Assembly (NCBI GenBank): GCA_024650005.2
Contig: CP122380.1
Coordinates: 384,001-448,000, forward strand
Direction of reading: 5' to 3'
DNA from: Candidatus Bathyarchaeum tardum
GTDB taxonomy: Archaea > Thermoproteota > Bathyarchaeia > Bathyarchaeales > Bathyarchaeaceae
DNA: 64,000 bases
Shown here: positions 33,147-62,993 of the stretch, in pieces
Layout: every line of letters starts with the position of its first letter
Numbering within the stretch: position 1 is the first letter of the stretch
Position numbers and translations under genes: made by a program
Notes under the pieces: model-generated
Told to the model about the DNA's origin: nothing
Databases searched by the model: none
What the model saw: the letters and a program-made list of their open reading frames with translations, nothing else

Positions 33147-34031
33147 ATGGCATCACTGATGGATAATAATTGCAGGCAACTTTGTCCCGCGCGGATAGTT
33201 TCTCTTTCTCCCAGCAACACCGAGATACTGTTTGCTGTTGGAGCTGGAAACAAAGTTGTTGGAGTGACAGACTACTGTGACCATCCTGCCCAGTTAGAGG
33301 CACAAATCAGAGCAAAAAAAACTTTCAGAGTTGGGGGTTACTGGAACCCTTCTGTGGAAAAGATTTTAGCTTTGGATCCTGATTTAGTTTTAGTTTCCAC
33401 TGCAAAATGTTCCAATAAAACAAACGACTGCAAAACCGAATGCAGCCGTAGTTGTGAAATAACAATAAAAACTGCAAAAGAACTGGAAAGTTTGGGAATT
33501 AATGTTTTGATGTTATCTCCTCACAGTTTGGATGATGTTTTTGATGACATTTTGTTAGTTGGTAACGCTACTGGAAAAAGTTCCCGTGCTCGCAAGATTG
33601 CGAAAGATTTGAGGCAACGGACAAACACAGTTATTGAAGCATCAAAAACAATTGCGGTCAAACCAAAAGTGTACTTTGAAGTTTGGAAAGACCCTTACAT
33701 CAGTGTCAATTCACAAACTTGGATTGGTAACCTGATTAGTTTAGCTGGTGGCGAAAACGTTTTTGGAGATGCCCTTACTGAATGGCCCCTGATTGGTCCA
33801 GATGATGTTGTTAAAGTTAATCCTGATGTGATGTTGTTTCCTGTTATTCCTGATGTTGTACCTTTTTGGGAAAGTTTTGAAGCAGTCCAGAATCGGAAGG
33901 GATGGAAAAATGTGTCTGCAATTAAAAATGAACGCCTTTCTACCGTTTTAAGAGATTGTGTTTCTCGCCCCGGACCTAGACTTGTAGAGTCGTTGGAACA
34001 ACTTTCAAAATTTTTTCATGAAATCTCTTAA
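33147..34031 (+). CDS. BtuF-like cobalamin-binding protein, no signal peptide, Cys-rich insertion
   Basis: RIVSLSPSNTEILFAVGAG..VVGVTDYCD.P, SRPGPRL; insertion KCSNKTNDCKTECSRSC. Confidence 0.85.
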   Translation: MASLMDNNCRQLCPARIVSLSPSNTEILFAVGAGNKVVGVTDYCDHPAQLEAQIRAKKTFRVGGYWNPSVEKILALDPDLVLVSTAKCSNKTNDCKTECSRSCEITIKTAKELESLGINVLMLSPHSLDDVFDDILLVGNATGKSSRARKIAKDLRQRTNTVIEASKTIAVKPKVYFEVWKDPYISVNSQTWIGNLISLAGGENVFGDALTEWPLIGPDDVVKVNPDVMLFPVIPDVVPFWESFEAVQNRKGWKNVSAIKNERLSTVLRDCVSRPGPRLVESLEQLSKFFHEIS

Positions 34032-34079
34032 ATAACTCGTGTTTGTTGTTTTGGGTGTTCATTCGGAGCTTATTTAACC

Positions 34080-34712
34080 TTGAAAGCTGCAGCATTGTTT
34101 TCTGGAGGAAAGGACTCCCTTTATTCTCTTTATATTGCTGAAAAACAAGGAATCAAAGTTGACCATCTAATCACGTTGATTACTACTCTTCCTATTCCTT
34201 CGCCTCATGCAGAAAACATTGAAGCATTAAAAACCATAGCAAAATCCATGGGTAAACAGTTAACAATAGTTGATTTTAAGCAAAAAAACGCTTTCATTGA
34301 AACTCTAAAAAACTTGAACATCGATGCATTAATTGCTGGTGATATCGATGGTGACGATCATTTTCAAGGGCTGAAAGATGTTTGTAGCAAAACTGGTCTA
34401 GAGTTGCTTGAACTAATCTACGGCAGGGATACCACTGAACTTTTTAATGAAATTTTTGGTTTAGGCTTTAAAGCCCTGATTACAGGTGTAGACCTGAACT
34501 ACTTGGGCAAAGAATGGCTTGGATTTGTTATCAGTAAAGAATCAGGTGCCCATTTTCTGGAAAAAATTGGAACTGCAGACCCCTTAGGAGAATATGGTGA
34601 GTTTCATACTTTAGTTCTTGAATGTCCCCTTTATGGAAAATCTTTCAAGGTTACTTCGACAGAAAATATGCTTGAAAATAATATTGCCTTCATTAAGGTT
34701 TCAGTTGAATAG
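34080..34712 (+). CDS. DUF71/Dph6-like ATP pyrophosphatase
   Basis: LFSGGKDS, GDID, DPLGEYGEFHTLV..CPL. Confidence 0.85.
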   Translation: MKAAALFSGGKDSLYSLYIAEKQGIKVDHLITLITTLPIPSPHAENIEALKTIAKSMGKQLTIVDFKQKNAFIETLKNLNIDALIAGDIDGDDHFQGLKDVCSKTGLELLELIYGRDTTELFNEIFGLGFKALITGVDLNYLGKEWLGFVISKESGAHFLEKIGTADPLGEYGEFHTLVLECPLYGKSFKVTSTENMLENNIAFIKVSVE

Positions 34713-34827
34713 CTATTTGTGTACGCTTTAGGTAATTTTTTTTATGTTTCATGTTATCTTTGTCCTTGTTTTTCGTAACTTTTATATACTTTAAGGTTGG
34801 ATTATCCATCCTAAAGGATGTGTAATA

Positions 34828-36012
34828 TTGGATAAAAATATCACATACATCATTGCGATTGTAGCTGTTATCTCATTAATCGTTTCAGCTTTCGGATACA
34901 TTACTTTTGAAGGTCAAATTAGTGACATAAAAACCTCCATAAGTGACCTTGAACTTGCTGTAACAAATAACGACATTTCATCTGTTGAAGACGATGTTAG
35001 CTCAATTCAAAGTCAACTTGCAGACATTCAACAAACAATCGACACTTATCAGAGTGCAATCACTGACTTGGAAACCCAAGTAGGCGAACAACAAGACAAA
35101 ATCGACGAATATCAGCAAACTATTGAAGATCAACAAGCACAACTTGATGAATACAAACAAGTAACTCTAGTTGACGGCTTAGGTAATGTAGTCACTTTAA
35201 CTGAACTCCCAGAACGAATTGTTTCTTTGTCACCTAGTAACACAGAAATCTTGTTTGCTGTGGGCGCGGGCGACAAAGTCGTGGGTGTAACCGATTTCTG
35301 TAACTATCCTTATGATTTCTCCTCTTGGGTTGAAGCAGGTAACATGACCAGTATTGGCAGTTATTATGGTCCTTCTATTGAACCAATTGTTGCATTGAAT
35401 CCTGACTTGGTTTTGGCAAGCACTGGGAGCCTAGATGCCGCAGATTCTTTGAAGAATCTTGGATACAATGTTCTAGTAATTGAAGGTTACACTATTGACG
35501 ATCTTCTTGGTGACATTCTACTAATAGGCAGAGCAGTTGACCAAAACACTGAAGCTGCTGCCCTAGTAAGTGACATGCGCGCAAGAATGGATTCAATTGC
35601 CACACAACTGTTAGCTGCAACTACGACTCCAACAGTTTACCATGAAGTCTGGAACGAACCTCTAATGAGCGTAGGTCCAAACACTTTCATTGATGAACTG
35701 ATCACTCTCGCTGGTGGAGAAAACATCTTCAGTGACGCAACTACTAGTTGGCCGACGGTAAGTTCTGAAGCAATTATTGTAAAGAATCCTGATGTAATGT
35801 TTTTCCCTGACATGTATATGGGGGTCGGAAACTTCTACGAAACCATCGAAGCTGTAGGTAGCCGTCCTGGCTGGGATTCAATCACTGCTGTGAAAAATGA
35901 TGCCTTATACGAAATCAATGCTGACATTATCTCCAGATCTGGTCCAAGACTAATTGACGCTTTAGAGCTTATAGCCAAGATGGTTCATCCCGAAATATTT
36001 GGCGAACTCTAA
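34828..36012 (+). CDS. btuF: Cobalamin ABC transporter substrate-binding protein (TM anchor and coiled-coil stalk)
   Basis: N-terminal TM, heptad-rich linker, PERIVSLSPSNTEILFAVG, SRSGPRL. Confidence 0.88.
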   Translation: MDKNITYIIAIVAVISLIVSAFGYITFEGQISDIKTSISDLELAVTNNDISSVEDDVSSIQSQLADIQQTIDTYQSAITDLETQVGEQQDKIDEYQQTIEDQQAQLDEYKQVTLVDGLGNVVTLTELPERIVSLSPSNTEILFAVGAGDKVVGVTDFCNYPYDFSSWVEAGNMTSIGSYYGPSIEPIVALNPDLVLASTGSLDAADSLKNLGYNVLVIEGYTIDDLLGDILLIGRAVDQNTEAAALVSDMRARMDSIATQLLAATTTPTVYHEVWNEPLMSVGPNTFIDELITLAGGENIFSDATTSWPTVSSEAIIVKNPDVMFFPDMYMGVGNFYETIEAVGSRPGWDSITAVKNDALYEINADIISRSGPRLIDALELIAKMVHPEIFGEL

Positions 36013-36067
36013 AATACCCCTTCTTCTCTTTCTTTTTTATCAAATAAAACATAACTTGTGATTCTTC

Positions 36068-37147
36068 ATGACCGCTGACGCTGAAACCAAGCGTTTACGC
36101 AATGTTTCTCGATGGAAACTATACCTTTTGATTCTGGTGGCTGTGTTTGCTGCTGTTTTCGTGTTATCCCTAAACTTAGGATATGCCCCCATTCCGTTCA
36201 GGGACATTTTGAACATACTAGGCAATCAAGTTCCCTTATTAAACACATTTATAGACGCATCAGGAGTCGACCCAACCTACGCAGTAATAATTAGCCAAAT
36301 TCGTCTTCCCCGAGTAATCTGCGGTGCCCTAGTTGGTGCCGCACTGGCAACTGCTGGAGTAACCTATCAAGGAATTTTCCGAAACCCCATGGCTGACCCG
36401 TACGTAATCGGAGCCTCAACAGGGGCTTCTGTGGGTTCTGCATTAGTATTCGTTTTTGGAATAAATATCGCAATTTTAGGTTTGAACACTCTTCCAGTTT
36501 TTGCTTTTGTTGGTTCTCTTGTAACAGTTCTTATTGTTTATACAATATCCAGAGTCGGTTCAAAGGTTCCAGTTACTACTTTACTTTTGACAGGTATTGC
36601 AATGAGTCTTTTCCAAAACGCCATAGTTACTTATCTGAAAACTGTTGCCGGCGACAGAATCCTTCACGGCCTAACCTTCTGGCTTATTGGTAGTCTTTCA
36701 TCTACTGAAAACTGGGATAAAGTGTATGCAATTCTGCCCTTTATAATCGTTGGATCTGTAATTTGTTACTTGTATTCCCGGGATTTAAACATCCTTGCCC
36801 TAGGAGAAGACCAAGCCCAACATTTGGGAGTTGAAATCGAAAAAGTAAAACGTATTTTACTTGTTGCAGGAGCATTGATGACTGCTGCTGCCGTTTCAAT
36901 TAGTGGTTTAATTGGATTTGTTGGATTGATAATACCTCATGTAACACGAGTGTTGATTGGTCCTGACCACCGTGTTCTTATTCCAACTTCTGCACTTGTA
37001 GGGGCTTCTTTTTTGATGATTTCAGATGCCATTTCCCGAGTAATAATGGGCTCGGGAGAAGCCCCTGTGGGGATAATAACTGCCTTTGCTGGGGCACCAT
37101 TCTTCATATACTTGCTTCGCAGAAAGAATAAAGGATACAAACTATAG
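36068..37147 (+). CDS. btuC: Cobalamin/FecCD ABC transporter permease
   Basis: IRLPRV, QGIFRNPMADPYVIG, LGEDQAQHLGV, GLIGFVGLIIPH. Confidence 0.9.
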   Translation: MTADAETKRLRNVSRWKLYLLILVAVFAAVFVLSLNLGYAPIPFRDILNILGNQVPLLNTFIDASGVDPTYAVIISQIRLPRVICGALVGAALATAGVTYQGIFRNPMADPYVIGASTGASVGSALVFVFGINIAILGLNTLPVFAFVGSLVTVLIVYTISRVGSKVPVTTLLLTGIAMSLFQNAIVTYLKTVAGDRILHGLTFWLIGSLSSTENWDKVYAILPFIIVGSVICYLYSRDLNILALGEDQAQHLGVEIEKVKRILLVAGALMTAAAVSISGLIGFVGLIIPHVTRVLIGPDHRVLIPTSALVGASFLMISDAISRVIMGSGEAPVGIITAFAGAPFFIYLLRRKNKGYKL

Positions 37148-37157
37148 GTGACAAAAC

Positions 37158-38435: not shown

Positions 38436-38504
38436 AATCCGTTAACGGTTTTCATGAAAATTGAATACTTTTTTATTTTCTCTTGAACCTTTTAGTTACA
38501 CACG

Positions 38505-39596
38505 ATGGTGACGATTTTGAAAGAAAAAGCACCTTTATTTATCCTTCCTTGGCGATGCACTTCTGCATGTACCAACAATTGTTTGCATTGTGGCTTCGCA
38601 AATACCCCTGAACCCCTTGATTCCTTAGGAACTGAAGAAACAAAATGCATCGTAGATAAAATACACGCATTTGGGGCAACATATTTTGGAATAAGTGGCG
38701 GAGAACCTCTTTTGCGAAAAGACCTTCCTGAAATAATTAGTTACGCCAAAGGCACTGGGATGAATGTGAGCATAATAACCAGCGGATATGGACTGGACAA
38801 CAAAATAATGGAAACCCTAGTCAAATATGGCGTTAGAGTTTCTATTAGTGTTGACGGTCCCGAAGAAATTAATGATGCCCTCCGTGGAAAGGGAGCATAC
38901 AAAACCGCCCTTGCAGCCATAGAAAAAATTTCCAAGGCAGGTCTTTTGGATTGTTTGGTTGCCACCTTGGCTAATGCTGATTCAACACATGACAACATCA
39001 GTTCTAATGCAATGGAACACGTCATCAAATTGGCTGAAAAATATGGCGCCCGTTGGGTAGTAATTCATGGTTTTATTCCTTTCAACAAAACAAAAAAACA
39101 TCTTGCACGTGCACCTTCTCCGGAGCAATATGAAAAAATCTGGAACGATGTTTATGACCTTCGCCTAAAATATAACGGAAAACCTGAAGTCAACGTTTAC
39201 TGTCCCTTTTTTGCCCGAATTGCAAAACAACGGGGATTGCCAGACTTTGACAACTGGCTGAACAAGTTTTTCTTGGGTAGATGCTCCATGGCTGGCAAAT
39301 ACATGAGTGTAATCGAAAACGGCGACGTTATTCCATGCAGTTTCAACGACCGCATTAGACTAGGAAACGTTCAAGATAAATCCTTATACCAAATCTGGGA
39401 TGAACTACAAACTTCAGAATTAACTGTGAAACTCAAAGACCGTAGCAACCTCAAAGGCAAATGTGGGGTTTGCGAATACCGCGAAATTTGTGGGGGATGC
39501 AGAACCCGAGCACAAATTTATACAGGGGACTATTTTGGTTCAGACCCTGCCTGTGCTTATGTTCCAAAAGTTTTGCAGGACAAGCAGCAAAAATGA
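38505..39596 (+). CDS. Radical SAM/SPASM protein (NirJ/Ahb/PqqE-like), paralogue 1
   Basis: CTNNCLHC, SGGEPL, PCSF, KCGVCEYREICGGCRTRA...DPAC. Confidence 0.9.
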   Translation: MVTILKEKAPLFILPWRCTSACTNNCLHCGFANTPEPLDSLGTEETKCIVDKIHAFGATYFGISGGEPLLRKDLPEIISYAKGTGMNVSIITSGYGLDNKIMETLVKYGVRVSISVDGPEEINDALRGKGAYKTALAAIEKISKAGLLDCLVATLANADSTHDNISSNAMEHVIKLAEKYGARWVVIHGFIPFNKTKKHLARAPSPEQYEKIWNDVYDLRLKYNGKPEVNVYCPFFARIAKQRGLPDFDNWLNKFFLGRCSMAGKYMSVIENGDVIPCSFNDRIRLGNVQDKSLYQIWDELQTSELTVKLKDRSNLKGKCGVCEYREICGGCRTRAQIYTGDYFGSDPACAYVPKVLQDKQQK

Positions 39597-39879
39597 GTTG
39601 GGATCTGACCTTTCCCTTTTTTTGTTTACTCAATATTTCTTGAGTAAACTGTTGTTAAACAGAGTCTTTTTTTGTCAAGAAATCTTAACAAAAATCCTTT
39701 TATCCATTTCTAATAATAACAATAAAAGCTGGCGCCCCATAATGAATGTTAGATTGTTCCAATCAATCAGCGTTTATTCCGTTTCTTTTTGCATTCCATC
39801 ACCAAGAATGCACGTTGAAACAAATTCAAAATGGGGCACCCTTTTTTTGACAAACTTAAATATATGTGAGGTGCTCTGA

Positions 39880-40950
39880 TTGGATGCGAGTGCACTAAAG
39901 ATGGAAGAACGACCCCTTCTTTACATGATGACTTGGCGCTGTACGCGTGCGTGCAACTATAACTGTTTGTATTGTAGTTTTGGTTCACAACCTTATCCAG
40001 TAAACGAAATCAACACCGAAGGCGGAAAAAAAATTGTTGATGAACTTTATGGGCTGGGCGCAAAATGGTTTGGACTTAGTGGCGGAGAACCCCTAGTACG
40101 CAAAGACATTTTTGAAATTATTGAACACGCAAAAAGCCTTGGAATGAACGTCAGCTTGATTACAAACGGGTATTTCGCCAAAGGTGATATCCTTGATAAA
40201 CTAATCCGAAACGAGGTCATGACTGCAGTAAGCCTTGACGGCACCGAACAAACAAACGACATGACCCGAGGAAAAGGCAGTTATAAAATTGCCGTAGACG
40301 CTATGAAAAACCTCTCTGATGGTGGAGTTTTTGATTGCATTGTTTCTACTCTTAACCGGCGAAACTGCTCAGAAGTTGACCATATTGCCGATTTAGGCTA
40401 CAAATACAATGCAACCCGTGTAGTTTACCATAATTATATACCAGTAGGCAGAGCCGAAGAACACCTTGACTTGGCTCCAACTCCCGAACAATATGAAGAA
40501 ACATGGAACAGGGTCTACGATTTGATGCGACAATACAATAACAAAATGAGCATCAACGTATATTGTCCCTTTTTTGCCCGAATAGCCAAAGAGCGAGGAA
40601 TGCCTGATTTTGATTACTGGTTTGAAAATGTTTTCTTGGGTCAATGTTTCATTGGTGGCAGATACATGGGTCTACTAGAAAACGGTGACATTCGACCGTG
40701 CGGATTCAATGAAGGCTACCGCACTGGTAACATCAAAAACAAGTCCATGAAAGAAATCTGGACAGACATGCAATGTTCAGACTTTACTCTGAAACTCAAA
40801 GACCGTAGCAACCTCAAAGGCAAATGTGGGGTATGTGAATACCGTGACATCTGTGGCGGATGCAGAACCCGCGCGGAAGTTTATACTGGTGATTTATTCG
40901 AATCTGATCCAGCATGCGCTTACATTCCGAAAGTGTTGCGTGAAGAATAA
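39880..40950 (+). CDS. Radical SAM/SPASM protein, paralogue 2
   Basis: CNYNCLYC, SGGEPL, KCGVCEYRDICGGCRTRA...DPAC. Confidence 0.9.
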   Translation: MDASALKMEERPLLYMMTWRCTRACNYNCLYCSFGSQPYPVNEINTEGGKKIVDELYGLGAKWFGLSGGEPLVRKDIFEIIEHAKSLGMNVSLITNGYFAKGDILDKLIRNEVMTAVSLDGTEQTNDMTRGKGSYKIAVDAMKNLSDGGVFDCIVSTLNRRNCSEVDHIADLGYKYNATRVVYHNYIPVGRAEEHLDLAPTPEQYEETWNRVYDLMRQYNNKMSINVYCPFFARIAKERGMPDFDYWFENVFLGQCFIGGRYMGLLENGDIRPCGFNEGYRTGNIKNKSMKEIWTDMQCSDFTLKLKDRSNLKGKCGVCEYRDICGGCRTRAEVYTGDLFESDPACAYIPKVLREE

Positions 40951-40970
40951 CCATTTTTTTTGGGGGTTTC

Positions 40971-41753
40971 TTGATGGGCGTAAAATTAATTGACATTACG
41001 TTGGATAATGTTTGTGAGTATGGTGTTTGTGGTTACAAGAACATCAAGAATAAAGGGCTTCAACGAAAAGTTGAGTGGCTTAAAGCCCGTTTTTCTGAAG
41101 GACTTAAAATCAAATCTATGCTTACAGAAAGCGATGGAACCCAAGGTTTGATTGAATACATTCCCGGAGAATACTGCTGGAGACCTGTTCAAGCAAAAGG
41201 TTACATGTTTATTCACTGCATTTTTTCAGGTTTTAAAAAAATGTACAAAGGCCAAGGCTATGGTTCACTGTTGATTGATGAATGCATAAAAGACGCAAAA
41301 CAGCAAAGAATGACTGGAGTTGCGGTGGTCACCCGTAAAAGTGGGTGGATGGCAGATAACAGAATATTTTTCAAAAAAGGCTTTAAAGTTGTGGACTCTG
41401 CGGCTCCTGATTATAATTTACTTGCCAAAAAATTCAATGCAGATGCACCTGATCCAAAATTTAATGGAACCTGGGAACAAAATTTGAATCGATATTCTGA
41501 AGGATTAACAATTATCTGGTCGGGGCAGTGTCCTTATCCTTCAAAATATGTGGAAGAGTTGGCTGAAACGGCTGAAAAGGAATTCAATATTTTTCCCAAT
41601 GTTGTTGAGTTAAAAACTTGTAAGGATGCTCAAAACAGTCCTTGTCCTTTTGGCGTTTTTTGTGTGACATATAATGGAAAAGTTGTCGCAGGCACTCCAA
41701 TCAGCAAACGCAGGTTAAGTAACATCCTGAAAAAAGAACTAAAACAGAAATAA
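40971..41753 (+). CDS. GNAT acetyltransferase with YoaP domain
   Basis: K..WLK.RF.EGL, IEYIPGEYCWRP, GQGYGSLL, QCPY, AQNSPCPFG. Confidence 0.85.
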   Translation: MMGVKLIDITLDNVCEYGVCGYKNIKNKGLQRKVEWLKARFSEGLKIKSMLTESDGTQGLIEYIPGEYCWRPVQAKGYMFIHCIFSGFKKMYKGQGYGSLLIDECIKDAKQQRMTGVAVVTRKSGWMADNRIFFKKGFKVVDSAAPDYNLLAKKFNADAPDPKFNGTWEQNLNRYSEGLTIIWSGQCPYPSKYVEELAETAEKEFNIFPNVVELKTCKDAQNSPCPFGVFCVTYNGKVVAGTPISKRRLSNILKKELKQK

Positions 41754-53819: not shown

Positions 53820-53918
53820 ATGATGCACCAAGTGGGGTTTAACGTAAAAATAATTATTGTCATCGGATTTAAACTTAAAGATGATTGCGATTTGCTTTTG
53901 TAACCTAGAATTCTTGTG

Positions 53919-54334: not shown

Positions 54335-55225
54335 TTGAAGATTGGAACCGTAATTTATGAGCCTACAATCGTTAAAGGCTATGACATTTCAGTTTATTAC
54401 TCAAAACGTGTCGACGGCGTGTTAGGAAAACCCGCAAAAGGCATGTACAATGATATCACCTGTTTTGTTGACGCAAAAACCCTACGAAGACGACCCGAAC
54501 TGGTGGCTCTTTCTCCGTTTGGTCCTGCAACCCGAGCAAACAAGGCACTTACTCTTCCTTGGGATTTTGTTTGTCCAACAAACGAAGAATACCAAAACCA
54601 CGTTCTAGACTTCATCAAAGAAACTGCCCACGAAGAGGTAGAAGGCGTAACCCTTTGTTTGTATCATTTTCCTGAGGAAAAATTTTGCACCTGTGGTGGA
54701 TGCTCTAAAAAACAAAAAGAAAGTGGACTTGACTGGTTAGAATGGCGCGCCCAAACAGTAACTGATTTTGTCCGAAGGGCAAAAGAACTAGTTTCTCAAC
54801 CTTTTGGAGTAGAAATCTGGCCCGACCCCATTTTGGCTAAAGAACGCTTCGGTCTAGACTTTAATGCGATTGCAGAATATGTAGATTATTTCCATGTTCC
54901 CTTATCTTCCAGTAGTTACGTGACAATGTACTGGGTAGACACCTTAACCCGAGACTTTTTGAAGATTCTCAAAAAACCAATGTTTGTCGAGTTAAGCGCA
55001 GAAATTCCTCGACCCATAGAAACTAAGGCTCTTCTTAGAACGGTTGCGTATCTTTCAAACTACAACCTAGAAGCTATTCTGCTTTTGGTCCATGATGCAG
55101 AACGAGCCAAAGATATTTGTCGAACCGCAATAAACGATACCAACTACCGAAACTGGGTAGACAAATTCGGTTTCGAAAACATGAGCAAAATCATCGAAAA
55201 ATGGGAAAAAATCTACGGACTATAA
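54335..55225 (+). CDS. Uncharacterised TIM-barrel-like protein, paralogue C
   Basis: YEPTIVKGYDISVY, WDFVCP, HFPEEKFCTCGGC, SGLDWLEWRAQTVTDF, PDP...ERFGLDF. Confidence 0.8.
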   Translation: MKIGTVIYEPTIVKGYDISVYYSKRVDGVLGKPAKGMYNDITCFVDAKTLRRRPELVALSPFGPATRANKALTLPWDFVCPTNEEYQNHVLDFIKETAHEEVEGVTLCLYHFPEEKFCTCGGCSKKQKESGLDWLEWRAQTVTDFVRRAKELVSQPFGVEIWPDPILAKERFGLDFNAIAEYVDYFHVPLSSSSYVTMYWVDTLTRDFLKILKKPMFVELSAEIPRPIETKALLRTVAYLSNYNLEAILLLVHDAERAKDICRTAINDTNYRNWVDKFGFENMSKIIEKWEKIYGL

Positions 55226-55249
55226 CCTGCTTGTAGCTTGATTTACTGT

Positions 55250-55996
55250 TTATTTTGCTGTTGCACGTTTGAATTTTCGCAGTTTGGTTATGTTCAAATC
55301 TGCAGAAACAATTTTTGTGTTTATTTCATCTTTTGCATGGCTGAGTAGTCCCCATGGAGAAATTATTGCACTGTTTCCACCTTTAGAACGGGATCTGGTG
55401 TTCCCGTTTTTCAGGATAAACACCTTGTTGTCTTCTGCTCTTTTTGTGGTAAGGGGATGCCCTTTCACGTGGGGGTGCGTTCTTGATGCCGAAACAGGCA
55501 AGAAAATAACTTCAGCGCCTCGAGATGCCAAACTTTTCACTGTCCGTGGATAAAACACGTCTGCACATATCAAAATTCCAACTTTGCAATATTCTGTTTC
55601 AAAAACTTTGAAAGTGCTACCAACATGCAATCCAACTCGTTTTTCCCAGTCCGTGAGATGCATTTTGTGAAATTTTCCCAGAATCTTTCCATTTTTCAAA
55701 AACAAACAAGTGTTGTAGTAGTTGCCTCTGAATTTTTCAAAAACTGTTCCTCCAACGATGTAAGCATCAACATCTTTAGAAACTCGTTTCAACATATTAA
55801 CTGCTGGTCCGTGGGTCTGTTCTGATATTGATTCAATCCGTGTTCTGTCCTCAACACTTGCAGGAAAAGGAAAATACTCGGGCAAACAAATGAATTTTGA
55901 GTCTTCATCCGCTGCTTTGTACAACATTTTTTCTGCGGTTTTCAAGTTCTCTTCAGGAGATTCGCTGATTTGCATATGAATCAAACTAACTTTCAT
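55250..55996 (-). CDS. Carbon-nitrogen hydrolase (nitrilase superfamily)
   Basis: Catalytic triad in LPEY, FHKMHL and ICAD; GNSAIISPWG. Confidence 0.9.
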   Translation of the reverse strand: MKVSLIHMQISESPEENLKTAEKMLYKAADEDSKFICLPEYFPFPASVEDRTRIESISEQTHGPAVNMLKRVSKDVDAYIVGGTVFEKFRGNYYNTCLFLKNGKILGKFHKMHLTDWEKRVGLHVGSTFKVFETEYCKVGILICADVFYPRTVKSLASRGAEVIFLPVSASRTHPHVKGHPLTTKRAEDNKVFILKNGNTRSRSKGGNSAIISPWGLLSHAKDEINTKIVSADLNITKLRKFKRATAK

Positions 55997-56150
55997 AAGG
56001 TCACGAACCCTTTTGCCATATTGGGCTATCAAAGCTGCTAATAAAGATTCAATCGCATTTTGATGATTGAAACATCATTGGTTTGATTTTAATACTTAAT
56101 CCTGACAAAGAACTGCATAAGAAAACCTTCTAAACTAAGGGGCACAATAC

Positions 56151-57344
56151 ATGGAAAACAAGTTGAAACTAGCTGTCTTCAATACCCAGCCGCCTCACCT
56201 TTACTTTGGAGGCGTTGAACGCCGAATACTTGAAACAGCGAAACAGTTGTCAGATAAAGTTGACACCAACGTGTACAGTGGAACAAAAAACGGCTTCAAG
56301 AAAACCACTTCCGTTAACGGTATACGTATTGTTCCCTGCAAGTCAACGGACAAAGTTTTTCCCTTAGACAACTGGGTTTTCAACCGTTGTTTATCTAAAA
56401 TGGTCAACAAAATAGATGCCGAGGTTTACGAAGCCCATGCCGTTAGTGGTTACGGGTTCTTGAATGCTTTAAAAAAACACAAAATCAGTAAACCTTTCAT
56501 ACAAACCGTTCACGGCGTTTTGGCAGACGAATACATTCAATCGTCAAAAGTATTTTCGCCGTCCTTGAAAACTAAACTTTCGAATTTTTTCATGAAGCAC
56601 CTTGGAAACATCGAAAAAGAAGCAGCCCAAAAAGCAACCTTAGTGGTTACTATAAGCAATTATTCTTTCAAAAAAATTGTTGATTTATACGGAATTGATC
56701 CGAAAAAAATCCGTATAGTTCCCAACGGCGTAGACCTACAACGGTTCAAACCAGACAATGAATACCAAGAAGCCAAAAAACTAGTTGGTGATACTCCTGA
56801 GCATGTTGTATTATTTGTGGGTAATCTAATTCCCCGAAAAGGTTTACATTTTCTTGTTGACGCCGCAAAATATGTAATCAAAGAAAACAAAAATACAAAG
56901 TTTGTAGTGGTTGGAGACGGGCCCCTCAAAGACAACCTGATTTCTTATTCTCACCAGCAAGGGGTCTTTGATAATTTTGCTTTTTTGGGCAGGGTTTCAG
57001 ATTCAATATTGCCTCAACTTTACAATTATGCTGACCTTTTTGTCTCTCCGTCTGTTCAAGAAGGCCAAGGAATAACATTTCTGGAAGCACAAGCTTCTGC
57101 AAAACCTGTTGTTGCTTTCAATGTTTCTGCAATAGCGGAGGTAGTAAAACACAAACAAACCGGATATCTCGTTGAACCTAATAACCAACAACTAGGCAAC
57201 GCAATTTCAGACCTTCTAGCCAACGACAATTTACGCGAAAAAATGGGAAAACGTGGACGTGAATTTGTTAGTAATATGTTTTCTTGGAATGTTACTTCCC
57301 AGAAACTGTTTCAAGTTTATTCTGAAGTTACCCAAACACCGTAG
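56151..57344 (+). CDS. Glycosyltransferase family 4
   Basis: GGVERR, VPNGVD, RKGLHFL, PSVQEGQG..FLEA.A. Confidence 0.92.
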   Translation: MENKLKLAVFNTQPPHLYFGGVERRILETAKQLSDKVDTNVYSGTKNGFKKTTSVNGIRIVPCKSTDKVFPLDNWVFNRCLSKMVNKIDAEVYEAHAVSGYGFLNALKKHKISKPFIQTVHGVLADEYIQSSKVFSPSLKTKLSNFFMKHLGNIEKEAAQKATLVVTISNYSFKKIVDLYGIDPKKIRIVPNGVDLQRFKPDNEYQEAKKLVGDTPEHVVLFVGNLIPRKGLHFLVDAAKYVIKENKNTKFVVVGDGPLKDNLISYSHQQGVFDNFAFLGRVSDSILPQLYNYADLFVSPSVQEGQGITFLEAQASAKPVVAFNVSAIAEVVKHKQTGYLVEPNNQQLGNAISDLLANDNLREKMGKRGREFVSNMFSWNVTSQKLFQVYSEVTQTP

Positions 57345-57347
57345 TTG

Positions 57348-60227
57348 TTATCCCATAATAGCAACAGGCGAACCTTTCTTTCTTTTTCTAACAAACATGT
57401 AACCAATTATTATTGCTACGGCTGCCACAATTATTATTCCTGCTATTAATGTAATATTGTCTAGGGGCATAATTGAATCCTGTGACTGGGATGTCTGGTC
57501 TTGTTGCTCTTCAGGCGTTGAAGGTTGTTCTGTTTCTATTGTTTCTTGTTCATCTGTAACAGTAAAGGCTCGTTCCTCAGTTTGCATGATGTATGTTGGT
57601 CCTGAACATCGAATAGTGGCTGTCCATTCTCCGTTAATGTCTGGTTTGCACTCAAAACTGAATGTTCCATCATTTTGGGCAATAATTTCCATAGTTTGTG
57701 TGTCGCCATTTGGGTTGGTGACCGTAACCTTTACTGGAGTGTATGCAATTGCTGGCTCAAGTTGACCACAAGCAGTAAGTGTATTGCCCTTTTCTACCGT
57801 GTTTTTGTCAAATTCGACATAAATCTGACCAAGTATGGTTGTTTTGCCGTCAACACAGTAAACTTTGCCGTCGTTGCATCCAAAGTATACTTGTCCTTCG
57901 TAAACTGAAGGAGCTGACCAACTGTTAGAATTAGTATCAAAAAATCCTAGCCTGTATCCATCTGTGGCGTTAAGAACGTAAACAAATCGCCTATCTGTGG
58001 TAACGTAGATGTTTCCACCTCCATAAGTTGGCGTGGTGTAAAGTTCGGTTCCTATCCAGCTCTTCCAGATAACTTCACCGTTATTGGCGTCAAGAGCGGT
58101 AATGAAAAACATGTCAACAACATACACTTGACCCTCATAATATGCTGGAGATGCAATCAAGTACCCTCCAATGCCTTCAGTGCCTTCAGTGGTAACATAT
58201 GTCCATTCTATCTCTCCAGTTTCCACGTTTATACCGTAATAATTCTGCTTGTTTGCAGCAACAAACACCAATCCATCCCCCACAGTTGGAGAAGCATGCA
58301 TGTCAGTGCCTCTGTCTTGGACTACCACATAGGGAATATCACATTTCCAAACTAGAGAACCATCATCAGCGTCTATCTTGTACAATGCACCGCTGCTTGA
58401 CTCCATAGAAGTGATATAAATTGCTCCCTTTGAAGCTGCAGGTGAAGCAGTAATGTACCCTCCAGTTTCATAAGCCCAAACAACATCACCATTATCAGCA
58501 TTAAAACAATACAAGTTAGCGTCTAACGAACCAACGTACACTCTATTCCCTAATACTATTGGTGAAGAACGAATTCCCGTAACCGCCTTGAAGGCGGCTT
58601 CAACAAATCCACCAGCATAAGTTTTCCAGATTAGCCTACCTGATATTGCATCCAAACAGTAAACGTATCCATCATCAGGACCAACATACACTTTTCCATT
58701 AGATACCGCCAGTGACGACTTAATTCTAGCTTCTGTTGCAAAACTCCAGTAGAATCTGCCGTCGTTGGCGTCAACACAATAAACATTTTTGTCTTGAGAA
58801 CCAAAATAAACTCGATCATCAGCAATTACTGGAGTAGAACCGACTCCTCCATTGGTTTCAAAACTCCATCTCAAATTTAGTTCTGAAGGTCCTAACTCGC
58901 TTGCTCCAGTGTTTTCTGAATCGTTACGCCACATGGACCATGATTCACTGGTGCCTCCAATAGCCCAAACTTGGTTGTATGTTTCGTATTGGTCCATTGT
59001 CATTTCTTTGATAAATCCTGGAATTATGTACAAGTTACCATATGCAACTGCAATAGAGTCTCGTGGACAATGGGTTTCAATATCCATTTCCCAAATTACT
59101 TCTCCAGTGAAAGCGTCCAAACAAACAAACTCAGATTTGCTGTACTCTAACGTGTAAGGGTCATAGGATGCTCGTTGTCCTGTTGTAGCGTAGACTTTGC
59201 CATCTGCAACCACTGGCCATCCTGGCCAAAACAGGTAACCTGGTCCCTCATATTTCCATACAAGTTGACCTGTGTTAACATCCAAAGCGTAAAGATTCCC
59301 ATCCTTGTTAAGTTCATAAACAATGTCGTAGGCTACTGCACTGCCGCTAATCCAGTATCCCAGATGGCTTCCAGGATTGTATTTCCACAAAATTTGTCCA
59401 GTTTCAGCATCAAAACAGTAGAACGTGTTGTCTTGTTCCCCTGCTTTGAGGAGTTTTCCTTCATAGTATGAGCCTGAAAAACTCATTGCACTGTTTGTTT
59501 CTGTTTCCCACAAAACATCACCAGTTCTGGCGTTAAGGGCAATTTGGTAAGTTTCAAAAGTTCCTGGGAAGACTTTTCCATCTCCATATTGTATTCCTGT
59601 TCCAGACGATGTGCTGCCTGAAATATATGTTTCCCATGCTAATGTTGGAGGTTCTGATGGATTTGAGAAGTCCCATGCTTCAACTACCGAGTCCCCATGA
59701 ACATAAAACATCTTTTCTTCTGGACTGTAAACACTTTCCGACCAATAGGAGACTTTTGCAGAAAACTTGTCACTGGTCCATAATATTTCTCCAGTTTCGG
59801 TTTGAACACAATATGGTCCCACAACAAGACGTTCATCATCAATTTTGAAAACTGCGGGCCACCTTTGACTATTCGGAAAGGTGGTGTTCCAAATTATGGT
59901 GCCTGTGTCCTTGTCTAGGGCAATAACACTGGTTGTTGTTGTAACTAAAACTTTACCATTAAATGCTGTGATGTAACTTTGGATTCCTTCTATGGTTGTT
60001 TTCCATAATATCTGTGTTGTTTCTGGGGCTGTGCCTTCTGAGAATCTAGTAAATGCTGAATCACCATGAATTTGTGGCCATTCATACTGCAAAAAATCAT
60101 CATTTGTGCTATTGCTAGTGACGGAACTATCTGCAGGGAATACAGCAACAGATTCCACAACCAGTAACGTAACTAAAAGGAGCAACCCTATCAGGTAGGA
60201 GTAATTTGTTTTTTTCATAAATTTCAC
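57348..60227 (-). CDS. PQQ-binding-like beta-propeller surface protein with Ig-like domain and C-terminal anchor
   Basis: Signal peptide, YEWPQ.HGD, two propeller blocks, Ig-like segment, TM followed by RKRKK. Confidence 0.88.
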   Translation of the reverse strand: MKFMKKTNYSYLIGLLLLVTLLVVESVAVFPADSSVTSNSTNDDFLQYEWPQIHGDSAFTRFSEGTAPETTQILWKTTIEGIQSYITAFNGKVLVTTTTSVIALDKDTGTIIWNTTFPNSQRWPAVFKIDDERLVVGPYCVQTETGEILWTSDKFSAKVSYWSESVYSPEEKMFYVHGDSVVEAWDFSNPSEPPTLAWETYISGSTSSGTGIQYGDGKVFPGTFETYQIALNARTGDVLWETETNSAMSFSGSYYEGKLLKAGEQDNTFYCFDAETGQILWKYNPGSHLGYWISGSAVAYDIVYELNKDGNLYALDVNTGQLVWKYEGPGYLFWPGWPVVADGKVYATTGQRASYDPYTLEYSKSEFVCLDAFTGEVIWEMDIETHCPRDSIAVAYGNLYIIPGFIKEMTMDQYETYNQVWAIGGTSESWSMWRNDSENTGASELGPSELNLRWSFETNGGVGSTPVIADDRVYFGSQDKNVYCVDANDGRFYWSFATEARIKSSLAVSNGKVYVGPDDGYVYCLDAISGRLIWKTYAGGFVEAAFKAVTGIRSSPIVLGNRVYVGSLDANLYCFNADNGDVVWAYETGGYITASPAASKGAIYITSMESSSGALYKIDADDGSLVWKCDIPYVVVQDRGTDMHASPTVGDGLVFVAANKQNYYGINVETGEIEWTYVTTEGTEGIGGYLIASPAYYEGQVYVVDMFFITALDANNGEVIWKSWIGTELYTTPTYGGGNIYVTTDRRFVYVLNATDGYRLGFFDTNSNSWSAPSVYEGQVYFGCNDGKVYCVDGKTTILGQIYVEFDKNTVEKGNTLTACGQLEPAIAYTPVKVTVTNPNGDTQTMEIIAQNDGTFSFECKPDINGEWTATIRCSGPTYIMQTEERAFTVTDEQETIETEQPSTPEEQQDQTSQSQDSIMPLDNITLIAGIIIVAAVAIIIGYMFVRKRKKGSPVAIMG

Positions 60228-60600
60228 GTCAATAAACTATTTGTGCAGTAAAGATTTTTTATCCTGGTTTCATCATCCACTTGTTTTTTGTTGTAAATTC
60301 TGAATTAAAGGTTTCTGCAAATAACAGTTCAACAAATGTTTCTTCATCTCTGGAAAAAGGTGACCACTTTTTGATTATAATTTAGCTTTTTTTGGTGTTT
60401 GGTTTTTTGTTGTTTATAATTAACGCATTTTATTAATCTTTTAGGAAGATTTTTTCCTTTTTTATATTATATCTTATGTAATACTACAATTTTTTATTTA
60501 TTACGGAGGTTTTAGTAAAAAACTTAAGTTAGTATCGATATTAAACGGAAAAGTTAAATACAGTTTATCAAGTTTCTACATAATTCCGGATGGTTATTTT

Positions 60601-61662
60601 ATGGCACAAACCGCAATGAACCGACCACAACTATATATGATGACTTGGAGATGTACAAGGGCCTGCAACTACAACTGTTTACACTGCAGTTTTGCTTCAA
60701 ATCCTTATGCGATCAATGAAATTGACACTGAAGGCGGAAAACGCATAGTTGATCAACTTCATGCAATGGGTACAAAATGGTTCGGACTAAGCGGTGGAGA
60801 ACCCCTAGTAAGGAAAGACATTTTTGAAATTATTGAACATGCAAAAAGCCTTGGAATGAACGTGAGTGTCATTACAAATGGTTATTTTGTTAAAGGCGAA
60901 ATTCTAGATAACCTAATAAAAAATGAGGTCATGACTGCTATAAGCCTAGAAGGCACCGAAAAAACAAATGACATGACCCGCGGAAAAGGCACTTACAAAA
61001 CAGCCATCCATGCAATGAAGAATTTGTCTGAAGTTGGGCTTTTTGATTGCATTGTGTCTACTTTAAACAAGAATAACTGTTCAGAGGTTGATCACATTGC
61101 TGAGTTGGGATATAAATATCACGCCACTCGGGTAGTTTATCACAATTATATTCCTGTTGGCAGAGCACAAGAACACCTAGAGTTAGCTCCCACTCCTGAA
61201 CAATATGAAGTAACTTTGAATCGAATCTATGACTTAATGCAAGAATACAAAAATAAACTTAGCATCAACGTTTACTGCCCATTCTTTGCCCGAATAGCCA
61301 AAGAACGCGGAATGCCTGATTTTGATTACTGGTTTAACAACGTTTTTCTTGGTCAGTGTTTCATCGGCGGCAGATACATGGGTCTGCTAGAAAACGGTGA
61401 CATTCGTCCCTGTGGATTTAATGAAGGCTACCGAATGGGAAATATCAAAAACAAATCCATGACCGAACTTTGGAACGAAATGCAAGACACAGAATTCACC
61501 AAGAAACTTCGAGACCGCCGAAACCTGAAAGGCAAATGTGGAGTTTGTGAATACCGCGAAATCTGTGGTGGCTGCAGAACCCGAGCAGAAATTTACACTG
61601 GCGATCTGTTCGAATCTGACCCAGCTTGCGCTTATATTCCAAAACTGCTAAGAGAAAAATAG
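60601..61662 (+). CDS. Radical SAM/SPASM protein, paralogue 3 (close to paralogue 2)
   Basis: CNYNCLHC, SPASM cysteines; long stretches identical to 39880-40950. Confidence 0.9.
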   Translation: MAQTAMNRPQLYMMTWRCTRACNYNCLHCSFASNPYAINEIDTEGGKRIVDQLHAMGTKWFGLSGGEPLVRKDIFEIIEHAKSLGMNVSVITNGYFVKGEILDNLIKNEVMTAISLEGTEKTNDMTRGKGTYKTAIHAMKNLSEVGLFDCIVSTLNKNNCSEVDHIAELGYKYHATRVVYHNYIPVGRAQEHLELAPTPEQYEVTLNRIYDLMQEYKNKLSINVYCPFFARIAKERGMPDFDYWFNNVFLGQCFIGGRYMGLLENGDIRPCGFNEGYRMGNIKNKSMTELWNEMQDTEFTKKLRDRRNLKGKCGVCEYREICGGCRTRAEIYTGDLFESDPACAYIPKLLREK

Positions 61663-61670
61663 AAAAAATT

Positions 61671-62993
61671 TTATTTTTCTGCGAATTCCCACGCGATGTT
61701 AGCTTTCCACAGGTCTCCGAGTTCTGTGAGTTTAATCTCTTCGTCGTTGATTTCGATTAGACCTTTCTTTTGTAGTCGTTTTAGTTGCTCGGGGTAAACA
61801 TCTTCAGGAATTTTTTCAAACTTTTCTTGGAACTCCGCTTTGATTACTGGCAAACGCAGGTAAAGTTTTGTCATTACTTTGCGCATCATTTCTTTTTCTG
61901 TAGACTCCGAAAGCCTAGCAATTGGGAATCTTCCTGCGTTTACTGCGGCGACGTATTCTTGTGCATTTTCAATGTTGGAATACGAAAATCTTTGCAGATA
62001 ACCCATGAAACATCCTGCACCAGTTGTTAAGATGCCTGCCCATGGCCATCCGTTAAGACAGTTCTCTTTAGCGTGCCATATATCTCGTGAGTATCTGTCG
62101 TGCCCGATGGGAGTGTATCCGGCTTCTTTGAACAACTCGTAGGCTGCGACGTACATTTCTTTTTCCAGTTCTTTATCGCCCTGAGGTGGAACTTTTCCTT
62201 CTTTGATTTGTTTATCAAGAACGGTTCCCGGACTTACTTCAAGGCAGTATGCGTCTACTTCTGCGTCTAACTCGATTGCCTTCTTTACTGAATCAACCCA
62301 GCTTTCCAAAGTTTGACCCGGAATGTTATACATAATGTCAATACAAACACACATTCCAAGTTTGCGTGCTAGTTTAACTTCTTCTGCAACATGTTCAGCG
62401 CTGTCAGGTAAGTTGAGCATTCTTCTAAGTTTGTCGTCAAACGTTTGTGCACCCATGTCGACTTGGTAAACTCCGTAGTCTGCGGCTGCAACTAATTTTT
62501 CTTTGGAGAAACTCCTTGAAGAACCAGTAATTTTAATGAAATAGTCGTCGACTGTGTTGAAGTTGTCCTCACAGAATTTGATTAAACCAAACATTTGCTC
62601 AATATTCATGAGGCTTGGAGTTCCACCACCCAAAACAATTTCATCAAACTCGCTGGTTTGAACATATTTTGTTTTGGCGTACATCATCAATTCTTTCTTC
62701 AGAGCCTCAAGGTACGGCTCCATCATGCTACTTGAATAAGGATTGTTGGGATAATAACAAAACGTACACCGAGAATCACAGAAAGAAATCCATGGCTGAA
62801 GTTCCATTACTTTGTTGGATGTGTTTTCGGTAGACAAAAACTCCATGAAAGCTTCGTAGGTTTCTGGAGCAATATCTGCACAATCTCGATAAGTGTAGGG
62901 GGGCCAACTCTCTCGGGAGTCGTAACTGTTTTCTTTTTCTGTTTCTGGGCTAGACTTTTTCATAATGGGTTTCCCCAGATAGTATCCTATCAA
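61671..62993 (-). CDS. HemN-like (class C) radical SAM protein
   Basis: FCDSRCTFCYY, GGGTPS, MGAQTFDD, IDIMYNIPGQT. Start may be ATG at 62963. Confidence 0.88.
   Translation of the reverse strand: MIGYYLGKPIMKKSSPETEKENSYDSRESWPPYTYRDCADIAPETYEAFMEFLSTENTSNKVMELQPWISFCDSRCTFCYYPNNPYSSSMMEPYLEALKKELMMYAKTKYVQTSEFDEIVLGGGTPSLMNIEQMFGLIKFCEDNFNTVDDYFIKITGSSRSFSKEKLVAAADYGVYQVDMGAQTFDDKLRRMLNLPDSAEHVAEEVKLARKLGMCVCIDIMYNIPGQTLESWVDSVKKAIELDAEVDAYCLEVSPGTVLDKQIKEGKVPPQGDKELEKEMYVAAYELFKEAGYTPIGHDRYSRDIWHAKENCLNGWPWAGILTTGAGCFMGYLQRFSYSNIENAQEYVAAVNAGRFPIARLSESTEKEMMRKVMTKLYLRLPVIKAEFQEKFEKIPEDVYPEQLKRLQKKGLIEINDEEIKLTELGDLWKANIAWEFAEK

Follow-up and report, generated by a model that had tools for sequence, protein, structure and literature searches.

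We have analysed a window of 64,000 nucleotides from Candidatus Bathyarchaeum tardum (positions 384001-448000 of the closed 2.15-Mb genome, which is 97.9% complete), centring on the genes between window positions 33147 and 62993. These encode a predicted corrinoid importer, enzymes that would rebuild cobamides, a methyltransferase system that would use them, proteins of the cell surface and a group of radical S-adenosylmethionine (SAM) enzymes (Table 1). On balance, we read this span as the left two thirds of a conserved Bathyarchaeia island for the supply and use of cobamides, built of separable modules. The genes can be identified, they cluster in a conserved manner and they occur together across genomes. 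The salvage and consumer modules are ordinary and well explained; the radical SAM set is conserved, found in one lineage only and uncharacterised. Bathyarchaeia are among the most abundant archaea of sediments and their metabolism of lignin methoxy groups is cobamide-dependent. Genes to import, rebuild and use the cofactor come as one package in this island, and many of the organisms carrying it appear unable to make any tetrapyrrole.

An earlier note on this DNA had described a single 30-kb neighbourhood for corrinoid salvage and remodelling. Gene calling combined an open reading frame (ORF) listing with Pfam and NCBIfam scans, the curated NCBIfam cut-offs being taken as the equivalog threshold, and each gene listed in that note was found at the position given for it. 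The left boundary at 33147 is also right, since housekeeping genes occupy the DNA to the left of it. While the genes stand, the single pathway does not: the span is a mosaic with surface and glycosylation genes, and about 40% of it consists of genes that had not been mentioned (those for the GNAT-YoaP protein, two membrane proteins, MtrH, DUF1616, the X300 paralogues, GT4 and the PQQ propeller).

Import, rebuilding and use of cobamides

BtuF2, BtuC and BtuD would form a corrinoid ABC importer, with BtuF1 and a DUF71-B12 type protein encoded inside the same operon. A Peripla_BP_2 protein, a FecCD permease and an ABC ATPase are found together there, which is the architecture of such importers, and the translation of BtuF2 has an N-terminal hydrophobic segment. 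BtuF1, on the other hand, lacks both an N-terminal signal and a membrane segment, has an insert rich in Cys (KCSNKTNDCKTECSRSC) and is found in some relatives only; possibly it binds corrinoids in the cytoplasm. Corrinoid models are the top NCBIfam matches of both BtuC (328 bits against the Halobacterium-type NF007081, cut-off 461) and BtuD (336.7 bits against NF007082 over residues 2-351, cut-off 537), while the BtuF equivalog score is 106.5 bits (cut-off 234). As these cut-offs are missed, the corrinoid specificity rests on the rank of the best hits and on context. From this ranking, and from the presence of DUF71-B12, CobS and CbiZ in or beside the operon, we infer that BtuFCD binds and transports corrinoids.

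The DUF71 gene is flanked by the two btuF genes. Its product scores 189.9 bits against the PAB0415-family model NF052346, short of the cut-off of 250, as against 97 bits for Dph6, so that both a best match of the B12 type and adjacency to btu genes are seen. The same arrangement, a PP-loop ATPase within a btu operon, characterises the DUF71-B12 subgroup (de Crecy-Lagard et al. 2012, PMC3541065), where according to the available text such genes adjoin Btu genes in 75 of 102 cases and a role in pseudo-B12 salvage is suggested. The role in re-amidation considered below is our own proposal and not that of PMC3541065.

The remaining steps of salvage would be carried out by a second group of genes. 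The CbiZ-CobZ fusion has the two-domain layout of CbiS, with CbiZ at residues 25-224 and the CobZ model at 244-375, though its score against NF038002 (165.4 bits) is below the cut-off of 250. In the scheme that we propose, this protein would cut the aminopropanol arm or a foreign lower ligand from imported corrinoids, CbiB2, encoded just to the right of the window, would re-attach the linker, CobS would join the nucleotide loop and the CobZ domain would remove the phosphate. DUF71 and CbiA2, a second a,c-diamide-synthase-type amidotransferase whose gene runs over the right edge of the window (384.5 bits against TIGR00379, above the cut-off of 261.4), could plausibly re-amidate the carboxylate side chains of scavenged corrinoids. 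Archaeal corrinoid salvage proceeds from BtuFCD to CbiZ, CbiB, CobY, CobS and CobZ, and the CbiS of Methanopyrus kandleri is a CbiZ-CobZ fusion. The same families and the CbiS architecture are seen here, with CobS above its cut-off and the transporter matching corrinoid models best, and the salvage and remodelling reading of BtuFCD, DUF71, the CbiZ fusion and CobS given in the earlier note therefore holds. Departures from the archaeal scheme are that BtuC, BtuD, BtuF and CbiS score below their cut-offs, that a signal-less BtuF is added, that orphan radical SAM genes are interspersed in the window and that CbiA and CbiB each have a second copy in the genome; a PduO-type adenosyltransferase was looked for without success, and the match for CobT was weak only. 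Both salvage through BtuFCD and CbiZ and the de novo pathway are described for Bathyarchaeia in the available text of PMC11697101.

The island continues into the 20 kb to the right of the window (L052, genome positions 447001-467000), which hold six class B (B12-binding) radical SAM genes, an aldo-keto reductase with a ferredoxin tail, a methyltransferase, the second CbiB, a 526-residue amidohydrolase, a fourth SPASM paralogue (rSAM_D) and an RnfD-ferredoxin fusion. It had been noted that the window has no genes for de novo synthesis of the corrin ring. This is correct for the ring-building genes, but the last ORF is of the CbiA type and a complete hem/cbi cluster lies about 1.09 Mb from the island, at about 1.475-1.51 Mb. 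This cluster encodes HemA, HemL, HemB, HemC, HemD, SUMT, SirC, CbiX, CbiC, CbiD, CbiG and several corrin methylases, and also its own CbiA (NF004921, 510 bits), another CbiZ, a CobN-type chelatase, a CbiB and a second FecCD-type transporter. From its gene content, the organism is predicted to make corrinoids de novo as well. As the cluster holds its own CbiA and CbiB, those of the island are second copies; there are three copies of CbiZ in the genome. CbiA2 is also present in three genomes of the genus that lack ALAD.

Several features of the de novo cluster are worth recording in their own right. An 849-residue ORF (L053:8976-11525, genome 1482976-1485525) carries GlutR (HemA), CbiX and CbiC domains in one uninterrupted frame. 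Because its start overlaps the adjoining CbiA gene, translation probably begins at a more downstream position, and the HemA-CbiX-CbiC arrangement may be a real fusion. A 996-residue protein with three Peripla_BP_2 stretches (L054:1607-4597, genome 1495607-1498597) adjoins the second FecCD permease, the stand-alone CbiZ and the CobN/ChlID-type chelatase. Genome-wide there are only two strong amidotransferases of the CobB/CobQ type, both scoring as a,c-diamide synthases, and no clear cobyric acid synthase (CobQ/CbiP) was seen.

Use of the cofactor would fall to a corrinoid protein, an MtrH-family methyltransferase, three paralogues of about 300 residues (X300a-c) and a DUF1616 membrane protein, which would correspond to MtgC, MtgA, MtgB and a putative transporter respectively. 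The corrinoid protein consists of a B12-binding domain alone, with DVHLTP at the usual position of the His-on motif, and its gene adjoins that of the MtrH-family protein, as in MtgABC. The X300 proteins belong to no real Pfam family, and a locus search with X300b gave 16 loci, all from close relatives. By description alone, this module fits the methoxy-aromatic O-demethylase of Bathyarchaeia (Yu et al. 2023, PMC10989822), which in the available text likewise comprises a corrinoid protein, an MtrH-family methyltransferase, two MtgB proteins of about 300 residues that are 44.85% similar (about 45% identity between two X300 paralogues here, whose size, copy number and position also fit) and a membrane protein. 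No activating enzyme gene is evident here, nor in that text. Here, however, there are three paralogues rather than two, and they flank a CbiZ fusion. The local methyl carrier of which the earlier note had spoken fits, again by description, an O-demethylase that had already been published and whose MtgC, according to the same text, is active with ordinary cobalamin in vitro.

Conservation of gene order and regulation

A locus search with rSAM_B returned 51 loci, of which 37 are from Bathyarchaeia at 55-87% identity, and the window proteins were mapped onto these 37 for synteny at the genus level. A further 20 loci from another family of the same order, with L033 making 21, are at about 55% identity. 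In the genus, btuD is followed by rSAM_A and then by rSAM_B or rSAM_C in 9 of the 37 loci, mostly behind GlmS-(BtuF1)-DUF71-BtuF2-BtuC; in the window rSAM_A starts 69 nucleotides past btuD and rSAM_B lies past a further gap of 304 nucleotides. At the other end of the span rSAM_C and the HemN-like gene converge in 12 of the 37 loci, and in two (L011 and L012) the HemN-like gene comes immediately past btuD-rSAM_A-rSAM_C. The methyltransferase MT199 is kept after the HemN-like gene in L013, L017 and L020, the first two of which run on through CbiA2 and a B12-binding radical SAM gene to CbiB2. Between these ends, the run X300a-X300b-CbiZ fusion-ferredoxin / X300c-nitrilase-GT4-PQQ propeller recurs in many of the 37 loci, and relatives keep the ferredoxin together with the CbiZ fusion. 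Since the genomes concerned are close kin, this conservation says little by itself.

In the second family the gene orders differ from that of the window. The B/C-type radical SAM gene adjoins an RnfD-like gene in 16 of the 21 loci, the remaining five being other paralogues, and the HemN-like gene is no more than 6 kb away in 12. Cobamide genes (BtuFCD, DUF71, CobS, the CbiZ fusion or CbiB2) are present in 12 of the 21 loci and the corrinoid protein with MtrH in 10. The other flank holds either CobS-DUF71-BtuD-BtuC-BtuF or a membrane-protein pair leading to the corrinoid protein, MtrH and DUF1616 and then to CbiB2, the CbiZ fusion or a paralogue of about 300 residues. DUF1616 is kept beside the MtrH gene in both families, and the neighbour of orthogroup D in both is the 526-residue amidohydrolase, often together with a PQQ-repeat propeller. 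Because the modules remain in company while their order changes, the case for linkage is stronger than common descent by itself would make it, even though the families are still kin. The proposal that the radical SAM and HemN-like genes adjoin btu and cob genes elsewhere is borne out both in the 37 loci and, reordered, in the second family. The nitrilase, of which the same had been expected, lies beside the CbiZ cluster in 9 of the 37 close loci and in 1 of the 21. The distant bacterial loci with tandem radical SAM genes (L038, L042 and L045) show no cob or btu context.

The radical SAM genes have regulatory sequences of their own. The 69 nucleotides between btuD and rSAM_A contain a hairpin, a T-run and a TATA-like box, so that co-transcription of rSAM_A with the importer is not assured. 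Ahead of rSAM_B is a promoter-operator module that is kept in 11 of 11 aligned intergenic regions of relatives. Its palindrome reads TTAGTCAA-N6-TTGACTAA in the relatives, with a symmetric variant in the window at 39626-39647. Genome-wide there are 25 copies of the pattern, whereas 20 shuffled sequences had 0.2 on average, and 15 of 23 sites lie 24-45 nucleotides ahead of the start of an ORF, those at the NosD/beta-helix genes, NrdD and the DtxR-like repressor mostly at about 35-45; none is found at the other island genes.

A non-coding leader of about 165 nucleotides is conserved between the promoter module and rSAM_B/C in relatives (L003:9798-9959, L011:9776-9950 and 10 other loci). It is bounded by an inverted repeat, TGTTGGAG ... 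CTCCAACA, and the window has a shortened, diverged version at 39704-39900. A structured leader RNA in the rSAM_A/rSAM_B gap was considered and rejected, RNAalifold giving one long-range helix of 8 bp only, with a double change in one of the eight pairs, in a single sequence, and a covariation term of +0.18. A precursor of a ribosomally synthesised and post-translationally modified peptide was also rejected; some relatives have small ORFs in the gap, but these share neither start nor frame nor stop. Nor is the leader a miniature inverted-repeat transposable element, as no multi-copy family is found in the genome. An nhmmer profile of the leader matched its own input sequences and one duplicate, with none in this genome or the second family, and an Rfam scan of positions 28000-64000 (E≤1) gave three weak, irrelevant matches and no riboswitch or known RNA.

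A number of observations weigh against the reading of the span as one conserved cobamide island. All genomes compared are related and belong to a single order, which means that inheritance accounts for part of the shared gene order. The transporter, DUF71 and CbiS models are all below equivalog cut-offs, the identity of X300 with the published MtgB is by description only and CbiA2 is present in just 6 of the 26 genomes that bear the radical SAM set. While rSAM_A is beside btuD in the genus of the window, it is so there only: the second-family orthologues adjoin a HAD hydrolase or housekeeping genes, and one B/C-type paralogue of that family is inside a NosD-like operon (L085). There are 23 genomes with CbiZ but without the radical SAM set, which is therefore not a general part of salvage. 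Lastly, rSAM_B has its own promoter-operator, and the 20 other targets scanned comprise eight NosD/beta-helix genes, NrdD, a DtxR-like repressor, an ICMT-like methyltransferase and nine without a family, with no cobamide gene among them.

The radical SAM set and its possible roles

The three SPASM enzymes of the window have the architecture of AhbD, AhbC and NirJ, with about 340 residues, a CX3CX2C motif from residues 22-25 and a SPASM domain, and these families (TIGR04545, TIGR04546 and TIGR04051/54/55) are the top curated models. In contrast to members of those families, they score 136-198 bits where the cut-offs are 500-650. None of rSAM_A, B, C or D reaches the AhbD cut-off of 500 (TIGR04545; rSAM_D, 234.6 bits), and the margins for NirJ, AhbC and TIGR04053 are similar. 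The HemN-like protein has the Radical_SAM core and HemN_C domain of ChuW/HutW, HemW and HemN, and ChuW/HutW is its best model, but again all are below cut-off (ChuW/HutW TIGR04107, 198.7 bits against 400; HemW, 144.9 against 205; HemN TIGR00538, 131.6 against 324.95). It has a Tyr two places past the third cluster Cys, where HemN has a fourth Cys. The solved structures nearest by sequence are PqqE (69.5 bits) and also SkfB for the SPASM enzymes, and HemN (1olt, 75 bits) for the HemN-like protein; no solved AhbD or NirJ was among the structure sequence matches. The earlier note had these proteins as relatives of NirJ, AhbC and AhbD and of HemN and ChuW, and these are indeed the nearest curated families, though all are missed by wide margins.

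A word-index search gave 1823 homologues at E≤1e-20; among the best 120 of these, those with a name were a generic radical SAM protein or alike, with one AdoMet-dependent heme synthase. The Protein Atlas likewise led from rSAM_B to generic radical SAM/SPASM clusters only. In the literature searched, we found no paper that assigns a function to these enzymes. In the available text of PMC11697101, COG0535-type radical SAM genes are mentioned only generically, and COG0535, AhbD, SPASM and heme synthase are absent from the supplement text that was searched; Fig. S10 and Table S4, outside that text, may bear on the assignment. In a maximum-likelihood tree of 38 sequences the family is set apart, with support of 100/100, from the matches in the class that are 33-37% identical, and it resolves into orthogroup A, orthogroup B/C with one clade per family, and orthogroup D. 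Each carrier genome has 3-6 paralogues, and the four orthogroups are restricted to two families of one order. In the window rSAM_B and rSAM_C are 83.5% identical, and in three genomes the B and C copies cluster by genome (90/81 for the pair studied here, 100/98 and 86/76 for the others). As the copies are about 20 kb apart, this clustering suggests repeated duplication or gene conversion between them.

The distribution was counted in 201 genomes of the class, taking E<1e-100 as a close radical SAM homologue; as the genomes are related, the counts are not independent events. Close homologues are present in 26, namely 6 of 6 in the genus of the window (this genome included), 0 of 2 in the sister genus and 20 of 27 in the second family, a pattern that requires at least two or three gains or losses. 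The HemN-like gene is found at comparable strength in the same 26 genomes, with two weak matches elsewhere. CbiZ is present in 49 genomes, including all 26 carriers, and the paralogues of about 300 residues in 27, of which 22 are carriers. CbiD is found in 20 genomes, 18 of them carriers, leaving 8 of the 26 without it; seven of these eight also lack ALAD at 92-100% completeness, while two CbiD-positive controls have it. In this genome the best match to AhbA/B (PF17805) has 23.3 bits, below the cut-off of 27, with positive controls in Haloferax, Sulfolobus and Methanosarcina.

These data dispose of the most familiar explanation, that AhbC, AhbD and HemN-like proteins carry out the alternative synthesis of heme. 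The AhbD, AhbC and NirJ models do score highest, but at 195-198 bits against 500 for AhbD, and with no AhbA/B above cut-off in a nearly complete, closed genome and seven carriers that have neither ALAD nor CbiD, this is almost certainly wrong and was rejected. The radical SAM set would accordingly not belong to endogenous synthesis of heme or corrin, automatic names such as heme synthase are wrong here, and, since carriers without tetrapyrrole synthesis exist, any tetrapyrrole substrate must be imported. That the orthogroup B/C and HemN-like enzymes act on an imported tetrapyrrole is our leading guess, tentatively held, with only a small part of the total probability falling to tailoring or repair of corrinoids. 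One form of import can be set aside with some assurance. The importer could take up heme, with the ChuW/HemW-like and AhbD-like enzymes degrading or handling it to obtain iron or to chaperone heme in organisms auxotrophic for tetrapyrroles; the HemN-like protein scores highest against ChuW/HutW, heme and corrinoid importers belong to the same families, seven carriers lack ALAD and the gene of the DtxR-like iron repressor has the operator of rSAM_B. However, BtuC and BtuD match corrinoid models best (328 and 336.7 bits) as against 256.6 bits for the heme ATPase model, the operon has DUF71-B12, CobS and CbiZ within or next to it, the HemN-like protein reaches only half of the ChuW cut-off and no ChuX/ChuY-like partner was noticed among the Pfam matches, no search having been aimed at them. 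We consider it quite improbable.

Taken in full, the reading of the earlier note has the radical SAM, HemN-like, nitrilase, DUF71 and CbiZ proteins as one pathway that would turn imported corrinoids, by exchange of side-chain amides, radical decarboxylation or methylation, into a non-standard cobamide serving the local corrinoid protein. Clustering with btu, cob and mtg genes across two families, the presence of the set in genomes without ALAD or CbiD, and the action of the nearest curated families on tetrapyrrole side chains are all consistent with this, as is the gathering of DUF71, CbiA2, CbiB2, CbiZ, the nitrilase and the 526-residue amidohydrolase in one island. Given this collection of enzymes that make or break amides, it is attractive, if conjectural, to suppose that degraded corrinoids from the environment are re-amidated. 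Nothing shows tailoring, though. The scores are far under the cut-offs (195-198 against 500; 198.7 against 400), the operator of rSAM_B is common to surface-protein genes, its paralogues are also found in unrelated contexts, ordinary cobalamin sufficed for the published MtgC in vitro in the available text of PMC10989822 and the nitrilase is with the cluster in a single second-family locus. The claim in full is thus unlikely. A narrower form, in which in tetrapyrrole-auxotrophic Bathyarchaeia the B/C-type and HemN-like enzymes, the RnfD-ferredoxin feeder, DUF71 and CbiA2 would jointly repair or re-tailor the periphery of scavenged corrinoids, by re-amidation and by radical decarboxylation or methylation of acetate and propionate arms, is rather unlikely too. 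If true, this would be the first case of radical SAM enzymes acting on the side chains of a corrin and might yield a non-standard cobamide for the lignin O-demethylase. Action on imported corrinoids in any form would open a new branch of B12 chemistry and could explain how degraded environmental corrinoids are reused.

Two further accounts, each doubtful in our view, place the substrate outside tetrapyrroles. The SPASM paralogues could be maturases of secreted or surface proteins or peptides, such as NosD-like beta-helix or PQQ-repeat proteins, their adjacency to cobamide genes being incidental. SPASM enzymes mostly modify peptides, the nearest solved structures, PqqE and SkfB, are peptide maturases, and the NosD genes under the shared operator, the paralogue in the NosD-like operon and the PQQ propeller, whose neighbour is rSAM_C in the genus and, in the second family, an rSAM_D orthologue, would all find a place. 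What this does not explain is the co-occurrence with the HemN-like enzyme in 26 of 26 carriers and the recurring cob/mtg adjacency in a second gene order; moreover the rSAM_A/rSAM_B gap holds no frame-conserved small ORF, and a cluster motif starting at residues 22-25 leaves no space for an N-terminal recognition domain. Alternatively, the set and its RnfD-ferredoxin feeder could process lignin-derived aromatics or another small molecule of methoxydotrophy, for example by acting on propionate or acetate side chains of rings. Most carriers (22 of 26) have the MT1-like paralogues of about 300 residues, 10 of the 21 second-family loci have the B/C-type gene immediately next to the mtgC/mtgA-like module, and the available text of PMC11697101 puts radical SAM enzymes forward as candidates for lignin metabolism. 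Four carriers, though, lack the paralogues, five genomes have them without the radical set, no aromatic-ring enzymes are seen in the island and the proposed chemistry is by analogy only. Should either account be right, the enzymes would still form a family not described before, in archaea of global importance. The remaining probability goes to something other than the readings set out here.

Neighbouring genes and other observations

Alongside the modules for import, rebuilding and use, the proposed arrangement has two more: bystanders, in which the GT-C-like membrane proteins, GT4 and the PQQ propeller would serve the surface and glycosylation, and orphans, formed by the lineage-specific AhbD/NirJ-like orthogroups A, B/C and D with the ChuW/HemN-like enzyme and extending, elsewhere in the island, to the RnfD-ferredoxin fusion and the class B enzymes. 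The GNAT-YoaP gene starts 20 nucleotides past rSAM_B and is in none of the 37 related loci, so its presence at this position is apparently specific to this genome. The 766-residue membrane protein is possibly a glycosyltransferase of the GT-C type, and its gene is kept beside the mtgC/mtgA-like pair in both families.

Table 1. Features of the span and its right-hand edge, in window coordinates (cut-offs are those of the NCBIfam models).
Feature	Position	Strand	Evidence
BtuF1, BtuF-like binding protein	33147..34031	+	Peripla_BP_2 102.9 bits
DUF71-B12 type PP-loop ATP pyrophosphatase	34080..34712	+	NF052346 PAB0415 family 189.9 bits; PDB 3rjz 74 bits
BtuF2, putative membrane-anchored binding protein on coiled-coil stalk	34828..36012	+	Peripla_BP_2 129.1 bits, residues 131-365
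BtuC permease	36068..37147	+	FecCD 315 bits; best NCBIfam NF007081 BtuC
BtuD ATPase, C-terminal extension of about 170 residues	37158..38435	+	NF007082 corrinoid ABC ATPase
rSAM_A, AhbD/NirJ-like radical SAM/SPASM, orthogroup A	38505..39596	+	Radical_SAM + SPASM; AhbD model 195.4 bits
Promoter-operator module: 22-bp palindrome, half-site, TATA-like box	39626..39705	+	ahead of rSAM_B
rSAM_B, radical SAM/SPASM, orthogroup B/C	39901..40950 (mechanical ORF start 39880)	+	Radical_SAM + SPASM; AhbD model 195.4 bits
GNAT-YoaP protein	40971..41753	+	YoaP 38 bits
766-residue polytopic membrane protein	41787..44087	-	no Pfam match; Atlas leads to PMT_2/STT3 clusters at 0.90-0.91
732-residue DUF6541 membrane protein	44696..46894	-	PF20176 75 bits
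CobS, cobamide (5'-phosphate) synthase	47038..47778	-	TIGR00317 140.7 bits, above cut-off 110
Corrinoid protein (MtgC-like), 142 residues	47956..48384	+	PF02310 53.8 bits
MtrH-family methyltransferase (MtgA-like MT2)	48416..49345	+	TIGR01114 279.5 bits, above cut-off 271.4
DUF1616 membrane protein, downstream of mtrH	49512..50081	+	PF07760 60.5 bits
X300a, paralogue of about 300 residues, putative Bathyarchaeia MtgB-type MT1	50186..51094	-	weak DUF4838 match only
X300b paralogue	51318..52220	-	45.5% identical to X300a
CbiZ-CobZ fusion (CbiS type), adenosylcobinamide amidohydrolase + alpha-ribazole phosphatase-like domain	52328..53476	-	PF01955 180 bits
Ferredoxin, 66 residues, upstream of CbiZ fusion	53631..53831	-	Fer4 24.4 bits
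X300c paralogue	54335..55225	+	38% identical to X300b
Nitrilase-superfamily C-N hydrolase	55250..56032	-	PF00795 115.9 bits; every NCBIfam equivalog missed
GT4 glycosyltransferase	56151..57344	+	Glycos_transf_1 143 bits
959-residue PQQ-repeat beta-propeller, N-terminal signal-like and C-terminal membrane segments	57348..60227	-	Pfam, sequence
rSAM_C, radical SAM/SPASM, orthogroup B/C	60601..61662	+	Radical_SAM + SPASM; AhbD model 197.7 bits
ChuW/HemN-like class C-type radical SAM enzyme, convergent with rSAM_C	61671..62993	-	Radical_SAM + HemN_C
Class I SAM methyltransferase (MT199)	63039..63638	-	Methyltransf_11 50.6 bits
C-terminal part of CbiA2, second a,c-diamide-synthase-type amidotransferase, 490 residues in all	63708..64000, gene extends past window	-	TIGR00379

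Two observations concern the DNA to the left of the span. A heliorhodopsin gene (PF18761, 300 bits) lies at 23966-24793 on the reverse strand of this Bathyarchaeia genome, and at 11416-13100 a QueC gene stands between two genes for queuosine-precursor transporters (QueT-QueC-QueT).

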